DNA from: a virus
Taxonomy: Duplodnaviria > Caudoviricetes
Virus record (IMG/VR): IMGVR_UViG_3300024346_000003
DNA: 64,000 nucleotides
Strand: one strand, 5' to 3'
A program made the position numbers and the translations under genes. The notes under the pieces were generated by a model. The model saw nothing but the letters and a program-made list of their open reading frames with translations. It was not told the origin of the DNA and ran no database searches. This document shows, piece after piece, positions 273 to 1,727 of the stretch; position 1 is the stretch's first letter, and every line of letters starts with the position of its first letter.

Positions 273-299
273 AAAAACCCATTGTATTAATGGGTTTTT
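273..299 (-). terminator. Intrinsic terminator hairpin
   Basis: AAAAACCCATT-GTATT-AATGGGTTTTT inverted repeat overlapping the kinase stop codon. Confidence 0.7.
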
Positions 300-808
300 A
301 TTAATGCTTTACCTAATCGTATTACCCTTTCTTTAAATTCCTCAAAACCACCATTATTATCTATAATAATATCAGCATCACTTTTACCAATATTAAATGA
401 AGAACTATCTTCTAATGGTAACCTTTTTGAAGCATCAACCCAAATGATTAAATCAAATAAGTCTTGTTGGATACATTCTTTAATTTCTTTTGAATCACGC
501 ATGCCAACATAACAATCAGCTTGGTTTAATATTCCTTTGGCCAATCTAGCTTTGTCCTGGATATTATAATCACAAATTAACTGGTGCCACTCAGCTCTAT
601 GGTTAACTCTATCTTCAAAACATTCAAAAGGTGTTTCATATCCATATTTTTTACTTAGCACATCGTAAATAAAAATTTCAGCAGCAGCTTCTGATGATGA
701 TTTAAATCTTAATCCAAATTCATCTTGTAAAATTTCAGCCATAGAATCCTTTCCGTGGCGCATGTGCCCAACCAAACAAAGGGTTGGGAACTTTTTATTA
801 TCTCTCAT
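287..808 (-). CDS. Deoxynucleoside monophosphate kinase-like P-loop protein
   Basis: N-terminal LCLVGHMRHGKDS resembles the GxxxxGKD P-loop of T4 gp1-type dNMP kinases; also has YVGMR, IIWVDA and DADIIIDNNG segments. Confidence 0.65.
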   Translation of the reverse strand: MRDNKKFPTLCLVGHMRHGKDSMAEILQDEFGLRFKSSSEAAAEIFIYDVLSKKYGYETPFECFEDRVNHRAEWHQLICDYNIQDKARLAKGILNQADCYVGMRDSKEIKECIQQDLFDLIIWVDASKRLPLEDSSSFNIGKSDADIIIDNNGGFEEFKERVIRLGKALIKTH

Positions 809-809
809 A

Positions 810-1589
810 TTATTTATATTTAAATCTATAATTTTTACATTTATTTTTTTTACTTTTTAAACATGCGAACTGTATTGCCCCGCCAGTTACATTAATAAAC
901 TCAGCAGCGGCTTTAGCTGATTCAAACTCCATAATGAAATTATAATCTAAATCAAACATCAACACTTTTTTAGCCCTAATACTTTTTTTATTTTTAACAA
1001 AACTACCAGAATTAGGTTTGTGAATAATTGTAAATCTATCTTTTATTTTTAATTTTAATTCTTCATCAGTTAATTTAATTATATCATTTAAATAAAACCA
1101 AGTGTACCCCTTAACTGTTTTATTTTTACACTTAAAGCTACAACAGCAAGGTATATTACTTTTATGTACATTAAAATATTTTGTAGCATCCTCAGCTGTA
1201 TCAAACTCATAAGTTTTTTCACAATCCACATTATAACCAACCACTTTTTTACCACGTTGCCCTTTTTTAAATGATGTTTGATTAGCAAATGTACAACCAT
1301 CACCACCATTTGTGTAATTTATTAAATCAAACCCCCAGGTTTTCATTTGACTAATCCAATATGTTTCCCAAAAAATCCAATCTTCAATCGGTACAATATC
1401 AATCACTTCTATTATTGGTTTTAGGTCTTGTTTTTTTAATTTTTCAATCCAATTTTTTTTATGTACTTGGTGTTTTCTAGCTCTATTTAAATGTGCCTTA
1501 TATCTTTGACTTACATCATTAGCTTTACCAACATATCTAACCATATTTGTTGTTGGGTCAATTAACACGTAAATATTTGTTGTTTCCAT
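810..1589 (-). CDS. Free-standing GIY-YIG homing endonuclease with NUMOD1-like C-terminal repeats
   Basis: NIYVLID...RYVGKA...R...H...E..WI...N catalytic module; two KKVxxY/F...EFxSAxxAA NUMOD1-like units. Confidence 0.85.
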   Translation of the reverse strand: METTNIYVLIDPTTNMVRYVGKANDVSQRYKAHLNRARKHQVHKKNWIEKLKKQDLKPIIEVIDIVPIEDWIFWETYWISQMKTWGFDLINYTNGGDGCTFANQTSFKKGQRGKKVVGYNVDCEKTYEFDTAEDATKYFNVHKSNIPCCCSFKCKNKTVKGYTWFYLNDIIKLTDEELKLKIKDRFTIIHKPNSGSFVKNKKSIRAKKVLMFDLDYNFIMEFESAKAAAEFINVTGGAIQFACLKSKKNKCKNYRFKYK

Positions 1590-1680
1590 ATCTATTTTTA
1601 TAATAAATATGTAAAAAATTAAAAAAAGTTACAATCCCATGCCTAGCGTGACCAATAATTAATAACTTTGGTAAACTCAT
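1558..1680 (-). pseudogene. Orphaned 5' end of the kinase gene (MSLPKLLIIGHARHG followed by an unrelated tail, 40 aa)
   Basis: Manual translation from ATG 1680. The first 15 codons align with FPTLCLVGHMRHG of ORF 287..808, then similarity stops. It lies directly behind a consensus promoter. Confidence 0.7.
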
Positions 1681-1696
1681 AATTTATAATTTTTTA

Positions 1697-1727
1697 CAAA
1701 TATACTACATATTTTAAATTTATGCAA
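1697..1727 (-). promoter_or_regulatory. Bacteroidota-type sigma70 promoter
   Basis: Minus strand TTG-N20-TATATTTG. Confidence 0.7.

Follow-up and report, generated by a model that had tools for sequence, protein, structure and literature searches.

A free-standing GIY-YIG endonuclease cassette that very probably entered a phage kinase gene at its P-loop codons and supplied it with a substitute start

The subject of this analysis is a kinase-like gene, and the endonuclease gene that stands before it, in the virus record IMGVR_UViG_3300024346_000003, whose 64,000 nucleotides (nt) are taken as a whole and called the window; every feature of the locus lies on its minus strand. Very probably, a free-standing GIY-YIG cassette has come to lie inside the P-loop codons of a phage gene resembling those of deoxynucleoside monophosphate (dNMP) kinases, between the Gly and Lys codons of the motif GxxxxGK, as a mobile unit made up of a leader, the endonuclease gene and a substitute for the first 19 codons of the kinase gene, ending at Gly. 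By the sequence comparisons set out below, the insertion leaves the first 15 codons of the phage's gene stranded behind the native promoter, and the substitute codons are in frame with the native Lys codon, so that a complete kinase is encoded with no need for splicing. An earlier note, written from the letters of the window, had described this arrangement; its observations are confirmed and its interpretation is largely supported by the comparison with related phages. The host of the phage, which is a large one, would belong to the Bacteroidota, as judged from the promoter type and from viral contigs. The features of the locus, with the basis of each in brackets, are as follows.

273-299, minus strand: terminator-like hairpin directly after the kinase stop codon (terminator scan)
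287-751, minus strand: native kinase gene body, starting with the P-loop Lys codon (98.4% identical to the relative L001)
752-808, minus strand: replacement 5' end of the kinase gene, 19 codons, MRDNKKFPTLCLVGHMRHG, with a recoded P-loop (cotransferred with the endonuclease gene in the loci L022 and L024)
752-1635, minus strand: inserted cassette of 884 base pairs (bp), made of spacer, endonuclease gene and 19 replacement codons (BLAST against L001)
810-1589, minus strand: free-standing GIY-YIG homing endonuclease gene, 259 amino acids (aa), with a NUMOD1 / I-HmuI-like DNA-binding part (Pfam and NCBIfam)
1590-1635, minus strand: leader (spacer) of the cassette, 46 nt, opening with the conserved NTTGTAAC at the junction (kept in all cassette copies)
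1636-1680, minus strand: original start of the kinase gene, now stranded, with 15 codons, MSLPKLLIIGHARHG, its last codon being that of the second Gly of the P-loop (match to L001)
1697-1727, minus strand: native kinase promoter TTG-N20-TATATTTG, of the Bacteroidota type (motif count)
1735-1755, minus strand: terminator-like hairpin at the end of the transcription unit before, a short way upstream of the kinase promoter (terminator scan)

The window and its uninterrupted relative

The closest metagenomic homologue of the kinase protein is P0001, encoded in L001, which is 93% identical and begins with MSLPKLLIIGHARHAKDS, that is, with the stranded start of the window. The L001 allele opens with MSLPKLLIIGHARH(A)KDS and is uninterrupted exactly where the window is broken. 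In fact, L001 and the window are 98.8% identical over window positions 3796-1635 and 98.4% identical over 751-1 (BLAST), the two homology blocks meet at a single base, L001 position 4040, and the 884 bases that the window has in excess (752-1635, with borders ambiguous by 1 nt) sit between the second Gly codon and the Lys codon of GxxxxGK. The two close relatives thus differ by the presence or absence of an insert at a fixed site, and the endonuclease-free allele that the earlier note had predicted, with the stranded-type start joined to a matching 3' part, exists in L001. The joint of the empty-site allele was not seen in contigs of four sequencing runs, which is silent on the coexistence of the two forms since contigs drop rare variants, and a DNA search of a phage collection with window positions 1-3000 gave no match. 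The insertion is not an assembly artefact, because the contigs X2 and X3, from two other sequencing runs of other studies, span both junctions.

The stranded start agrees with the kinase start of L001 at 44 of 45 nt, by which a chance open reading frame (ORF) is ruled out. Its frame opens with the ATG at 1680, runs for 15 codons that end, as the earlier note had it, at the P-loop, and then enters the unrelated A/T-rich insert, where it meets a stop codon at 1558. Upstream of it the promoter is intact; its motif, TTG-N20-TATATTTG, occurs 11 times in the window against 0.26 expected from shuffling, and the promoter region is nearly unchanged in the endonuclease-free alleles of L001 and L004. At the other end of the insert, the kinase ORF (808-287) begins MRDNKKFPTLCLVGHMRHGKDS, one base past the endonuclease stop codon, with a second version of the same N-terminus. 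The two starts share 21 of 39 comparable nt and five of the six P-loop codons compared in the earlier note differ; an origin by tandem duplication was rejected, as starts so far diverged do not fit with flanks that match L001 at 98-99% identity. The enrichment in G and C that had been pointed out in the replacement is also real: its G+C content is 46% over the 19 codons and 56% over the last 39 nt, against 30% in the rest of the kinase gene and 29% in the window, and no 39-nt stretch of the gene body exceeds 44%. Inside this G+C-rich start lies a 7-bp inverted repeat (CCCAACC ... GGTTGGG) with an 8-nt loop (window 767-788, 19-40 nt into the kinase ORF), detected by the terminator scan on the plus strand, which could affect kinase translation or be due to chance.

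The kinase ORF at 287-808 is complete, with 173 aa, a full P-loop and its own start. The protein has no match in Pfam or NCBIfam, but it matches PHROG 38514 and, weakly, PHROG 139 (dNMP kinase; E 2.8e-7). Its homologues in named phages are distant (at most 50% identity) and are annotated as dNMP kinase or dephospho-CoA kinase; metagenomic homologues number more than 1,200. An AlphaFold model built with 31 homologues reaches a mean predicted local distance difference test (pLDDT) score of 91.8 and has the order strand, P-loop, helix, the Walker A sequence GHMRHGKDS coming after the strand at residues 10-13. Foldseek matches of the model include 3lw7, 1jjv, 1dek and 3ch4 (E 4e-5 to 2e-3; template modelling (TM) score 0.45-0.63), and its fold resembles those of adenylate-kinase-related proteins, dephospho-CoA kinases, phosphomevalonate kinase and the T4 dNMP kinase 1DEK; searching the PDB by sequence yielded no meaningful match for the kinase. 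On the basis of the model, the label "kinase" is justified at fold level only, the predicted fold being that of a P-loop nucleoside monophosphate kinase, and the hybrid gene is plausibly complete and functional.

The gene that precedes it encodes a protein in which both a GIY-YIG catalytic domain and a modular DNA-binding part are found, as in homing endonucleases of the I-TevI / Seg type. Matches above the respective cut-offs were obtained with Pfam PF01541 GIY-YIG (26.3 bits, cut-off 22.6) and NUMOD1 (32.6 bits, cut-off 22.8), while an I-HmuI NUMOD-like match stays slightly below (25.8 bits, cut-off 27), as does TIGR01453 (46.8 bits, cut-off 56). The catalytic residues Tyr7, Tyr19, Arg29, His33, Glu75 and Asn91 are invariant in eight homologues and the ratio of nonsynonymous to synonymous substitution rates (dN/dS) is 0.17-0.49 among full-length copies; the gene is judged to be intact and under purifying selection. 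As the earlier note had remarked, the endonuclease gene has a motif of its own, ATATTTAT, about 15 nt 5' of its ATG, and the TATTTAT of the leader, at about this distance from the ATG, is probably promoter-like. A second endonuclease paralogue was not found within the window. Two endonuclease architectures share the insertion site, with catalytic domains up to 83% identical: a long form of 256-259 aa with two NUMOD1-type modules, as in the window (810-1589), and a short form of 193-195 aa with a different, shorter C-terminal part (L024:3400-3984, L011:3421-4005, L012:3389-3970). Furthermore, L044 (2501-3990) and also L045 have a related GIY-YIG gene, with 65% identity in the catalytic domain, that overlaps with the start of another kinase gene, for a protein of 314 aa; the L044 kinase has a Pfam DNMK match and its P-loop at codons 4-13, and no stranded start stands upstream. 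This suggests an old association of the endonuclease lineage with the 5' ends of dNMP-kinase genes.

Recurrence, transfer and decay of the cassette

Homologous endonuclease genes stand directly before the kinase gene in many metagenomic phages. At least 11 different stranded starts run up to the junction CAYGGG, with NTTGTAAY immediately after it and then a homologous endonuclease gene; they belong to the loci L022, L024, L026, L040, L089, L090, L091, L094, L097 and L098 and, in degenerate form, to L011. These starts end in ...AGR CAY GGG (examples are MKKRILLLGHGRHG, MENHIKLLIIGDARHG, MENNIRLNIVGSARHG, MVNEKKQFPKLLIIGSGRHG and MEKNKLPKLLIIGHARHG) and right after each of them come NTTGTAAC..., a leader of 36-49 nt with the TATTTAT motif, and the ATG of the endonuclease gene. 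A search of viral contigs with the junction pattern returned mostly chance matches, 5 of 39 being true cassettes, all of them found before. Behind the cassette of L040 (3258-3783) the kinase is present as two ORFs, of 82 and 95 aa, by a frameshift or a sequencing error.

The composition of the mobile unit is revealed by the comparison of L022 with L024/L096. Their cassettes are nearly the same, with 47 of 47 nt identical in the leader, 576 of 585 (98.5%) in the endonuclease gene and 54 of 54 in the replacement start, whereas their surroundings are not: the identity is 30% upstream, 64% in the stranded starts, 83% in the kinase bodies and 39% downstream. Between L022 and L024 the identity begins at the border of GGG and the first mismatch on the other side lies 8 nt past the Lys codon; therefore the replacement start belongs to the mobile unit. 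An element more alike than its flanks is the mark of horizontal transfer, and the whole cassette moves between diverged phage genomes, its replacement codons travelling with the endonuclease gene as one unit, as the earlier note had supposed for an element carrying a divergent 5' end.

After invasion, the endonuclease gene decays or is deleted while the substitute start stays as the permanent start of the gene. The loci L100 and L101 (proteins P0003 and P0038) are syntenic with the window, lack an endonuclease gene and start with MRDNKK; in both, a GTAAAAAA microhomology marks the point where the native promoter passes directly into the final 37 nt of the endonuclease ORF, after which the MRDNKK start follows. 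They are deletion derivatives that retain the substitute start but from which the stranded start and almost all of the endonuclease gene have gone. Endonuclease-free relatives with this start had been named in the earlier note as a finding that would speak against insertion; such relatives do exist, but they do not refute it, because the retained 37-nt remnant of the endonuclease ORF marks them as secondary losses. Other stages of decay are represented by L038 and L018, in which only C-terminal fragments of the endonuclease are left, and by L094, whose endonuclease ORF is shortened to 84 aa. A 59-aa ORF in L038 (3814-3993) begins with the initial residues of the upstream gene, in the version found in L024, and ends with the ~35 C-terminal residues of the endonuclease in its long form, which looks like a deletion of the remainder of both genes. 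The kinase start of L038, MKQNNIRLNIVGSARHG, resembles the stranded start of L022, a likeness that hints at serial invasions.

Because the substitute start remains after loss of the endonuclease gene, the N-terminus of the kinase is mosaic and uncoupled from the gene body. The window and P0001 are 97% identical in the kinase body and 46% identical in the 13 residues before the Lys, while the nearest match of the substitute start is P0025, whose body is 80% identical to that of the window. More generally, 21% of the pairs that are at least 95% identical in the body are less than 60% identical in the N-terminal 13 residues. The comparison of the two N-termini that had been proposed in the earlier note thus comes out in favour of replacement: the stranded version is that of the nearest relative of the gene body, the in-frame version is closest to a more distant lineage, and the endonuclease gene is flanked by two diverged gene ends, one native-like and stranded, the other in frame and foreign-looking. 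In the contig G001, an endonuclease-free start (L004:3983-4050) mixes MNKNNK, which is substitute-like, with LPKLLII, which is stranded-like; its P-loop codons ATG CGC CAC GGA are identical to the recoded P-loop of the window and there is no scar of an endonuclease gene, which looks like gene conversion between alleles.

Other observations concern the neighbourhood of the locus. A 70-aa ORF on the minus strand (window 1892-2104) is kept upstream of the kinase in most related loci (33-100% identity) and is a useful synteny anchor. A partial match to transfer-messenger RNA (RF00023; 36 bits, below the gathering score), clipped by the search range, covers window positions 2898-3200 and beyond on the minus strand and adjoins an FKBP-type isomerase gene at 2332-2754. 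In the locus of P0006 the gene order is FKBP, a 68-aa gene, the GIY-YIG gene and the kinase gene.

Proposed homing mechanism and competing explanations

The rearrangements described so far are read from the DNA itself, and the enzyme steps are proposed to account for them. In a co-infection, the endonuclease would cut empty alleles near the border between GGG and AAR, and the break would be repaired from the genome that bears the cassette. The right end would pair with the donor's kinase body, repair synthesis would copy the substitute start, the endonuclease gene and the leader, and the left end would pair with the donor's stranded start through the conserved P-loop codons. The recipient's sequence would be retained up to the break on both sides, giving exact borders, and its own start would turn into a new stranded copy. 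The resident gene would be spared, one copy of the site being interrupted by the cassette and the other recoded (GGA/GGT for GGG, together with other synonymous or conservative changes). As regards expression, the native promoter, the stranded start, the endonuclease gene and the kinase gene would form one transcription unit, which is supported by the terminator scan: the only minus-strand terminators at the locus lie before the promoter and after the kinase gene, and none was found between the promoter and the hairpin at 273-299. Transcription of the kinase gene, the second of two genes in this unit, would begin at the native promoter or at the promoter-like leader, and translation of the kinase may be coupled to that of the endonuclease ORF, whose end is 1 nt away.

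The junction codon is informative on the target. All six stranded starts found independently of the junction motif end in GGG, a codon that accounts for 8.8% of the Gly codons in the window, in comparison with 7 of 30 endonuclease-free alleles (Fisher p = 0.0009, on lineages that are not fully independent); this count uses the six motif-independent starts, the others having been pre-selected for ...CAYGGG. Resident alleles beside an endonuclease gene have GGA or GGT in five of six cases. The GGG codon may be part of the recognition site or may travel with the cassette, and both fit homing; the sharp borders at the Gly-Lys junction suggest a cut at the junction or within a few bases of it. CNNNG, the cleavage motif of I-TevI-type enzymes, is present in both the target and the resident allele and does not tell them apart. 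In six clusters of endonuclease-free proteins, P0001, P0004, P0005, P0043, P0087 and P0105, the nearly invariant second Gly of the P-loop is replaced by Ala (RHAKD), encoded by GCG in both DNA copies read (L001:4037-4039 and L104:1032-1541); GCG is one change away from GGG and makes up 8% of the Ala codons in the genome of the window. This change from Gly to Ala at the junction may represent target-site resistance.

Several points weigh against homing of this kind. Besides the incomplete independence of the lineages just mentioned, the left homology between diverged phages is short, 45 nt at about 64% in L022 versus L024, and the re-formation of the left junction is for this reason hard to account for. 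Recoding is not universal, as the resident allele of L011 retains the AGG CAT GGG AAA of the stranded starts. I-TevI-type GIY-YIG enzymes usually cut at a distance of some 20-25 bp from their binding site, and cleavage precisely at the junction can therefore not be taken for granted. Finally, we infer the cut site, and the activity of the enzyme on this target, from borders and conservation.

We regard as unlikely an alternative in which the P-loop region is an ordinary hotspot of recombination between co-infecting phages and the endonuclease gene, inactive or targeting elsewhere, was simply carried along. Passive spread of this kind would agree with the mosaic N-termini, which occur even among endonuclease-free alleles, with the L011 resident allele that still resembles the presumed target, and with the indirect way in which cleavage of this site is deduced; but ordinary recombination is not expected to re-create one exact non-homologous junction, and here the junction is base-identical in at least 11 backgrounds and the cassette has sharp borders in L022 and L024. 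Purifying selection on the endonuclease gene, its intact catalytic residues and the related endonuclease that adjoins a different dNMP-kinase gene in L044 also argue against a passenger.

It is very improbable, in turn, that the form with the cassette is ancestral and that L001 arose by precise excision, so that the polymorphism would record a loss. Endonuclease genes have demonstrably been lost in relatives (L100, L101, L038 and L018), but these losses retain the substitute start and a piece of the endonuclease ORF, whereas L001 has the intact stranded-type start and no trace of a cassette. Moreover, precise excision would require two repeats with no more than 54% identity to cross over at their last bases, and MxLPKLLIIGHARHGKDS is the commonest start among endonuclease-free relatives.

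That the stranded start and the downstream ORF form a split gene, joined by an intron or an intein or acting as two polypeptides, can be practically dismissed: in nrdA, gene 60 and gene 43, phage endonuclease genes have indeed produced pieces that reassemble (PMC2988022), but here the downstream ORF alone has all the conserved parts, including its own start, the first beta-strand and the complete P-loop, and models confidently as a whole kinase, the relatives without the endonuclease gene (L100 and L101) also lack the stranded start, the insert has no match to an Rfam intron even at a permissive threshold (E up to 1), and its 46 nt and 58 nt outside the endonuclease ORF, with stop codons between the frames, leave no room for an intein. 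The avoidance of RNA and protein splicing claimed for this locus in the earlier note is thus supported.

The observations can be joined in a wider reading, which we put forward tentatively, as a possibility with somewhat less than even chances. Endonuclease cassettes would form a whole family that has the Walker A codons at the 5' end of dNMP-kinase-like phage genes as its special target and is engaged in an arms race with it. Repeated invasion, start replacement and endonuclease loss would make the first ~20 codons hypervariable and mosaic, endonuclease-free alleles would escape through the change from GGG to GCG, and end-replacement may be a general, unrecognised way of entry into phage coding sequences without introns.

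Relation to known mobile elements and significance

Endonuclease genes that replace the end of the gene they enter are textbook knowledge for fungal mitochondria. These mobile endonuclease ORFs (mORFs) make hybrid genes, as in atp6, atp9, cox2 and nad3 of Glomus sp. (PMC3630166), in which the hybrid receives a foreign C-terminus and the native C-terminus is stranded (PMC3630166); the case of atp6 in Allomyces macrogynus is that of Paquin et al. 1994, as cited in PMC3630166, and atp9 of Rhizopus and cox2 of Mortierella are further hybrid genes. The cassette described here is similar in that a free-standing endonuclease gene (LAGLIDADG or GIY-YIG in mORFs) enters a conserved gene together with a diverged in-frame copy of a gene end, in that, of the two ends, the stranded native one is the better match to the nearest relative and the inserted one has a foreign look, and in that no splicing is needed. 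Unlike in mORFs, the host is a bacteriophage rather than a mitochondrion, the 5' end is replaced, with the endonuclease gene first and the gene start after it, so that the native promoter and start codon are stranded, and the site lies within Walker A (P-loop) codons; here, in addition, a population series of empty sites, filled sites, a transfer and deletion scars is visible. The element works like an mORF and is not a member of that class in the strict sense, which implies a mitochondrial host and a replaced C-terminal end. The principle is therefore known from fungal mitochondria, and what is new is its phage, N-terminal and P-loop-targeted form; no phage description of an end-replacing endonuclease cassette was found in the literature searched.

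Among phage elements, the closest are the free-standing endonucleases SegB, SegF, SegG and MobE of T-even phages, which home without introns and with co-conversion of flanking markers (PMC2988022, PMC2330249 and PMC2790892). With them the cassette shares a modular GIY-YIG and NUMOD-type enzyme, a free-standing gene, the replacement of neighbouring gene sequence by that of the donor and, as we infer here, spread by double-strand-break repair in co-infection. However, those genes are intergenic and their co-conversion tracts variable, whereas the cassette interrupts a coding sequence, has borders exact to the base and leaves the gene start duplicated, with one copy stranded. It also differs from the phage "genes in pieces", namely mobE in nrdA of Aeh1, mobA in gene 60 of T4 and seg in gene 43 of phage 25 (PMC2988022), which leave two polypeptides to reassemble, while the cassette brings a full substitute for the part that is cut off. 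Homing group I introns and inteins have in common with it a fixed site in conserved codons, a presence/absence polymorphism and a cycle of invasion, decay and loss; unlike them, the cassette has neither a ribozyme nor an in-frame protein-splicing domain, and the gene is kept by duplication and replacement.

Next to introns/inteins and genes in pieces, the cassette would therefore represent a third way for a homing endonuclease gene to lodge harmlessly in an important gene, namely by bringing along a spare copy of the part that is cut off. With an empty site, a filled site, a recent transfer and deletion scars all available, the cycle of invasion, decay and loss can be read directly, and the mosaic N-terminus of a conserved enzyme is accounted for. 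There is also a warning for genome annotation, as short orphan ORFs behind good promoters and odd N-termini are possible footprints of such cassettes. Finally, the P-loop codons hold a candidate recognition site of 18-27 bp, and the enzyme may find use as a programmable GIY-YIG scaffold.

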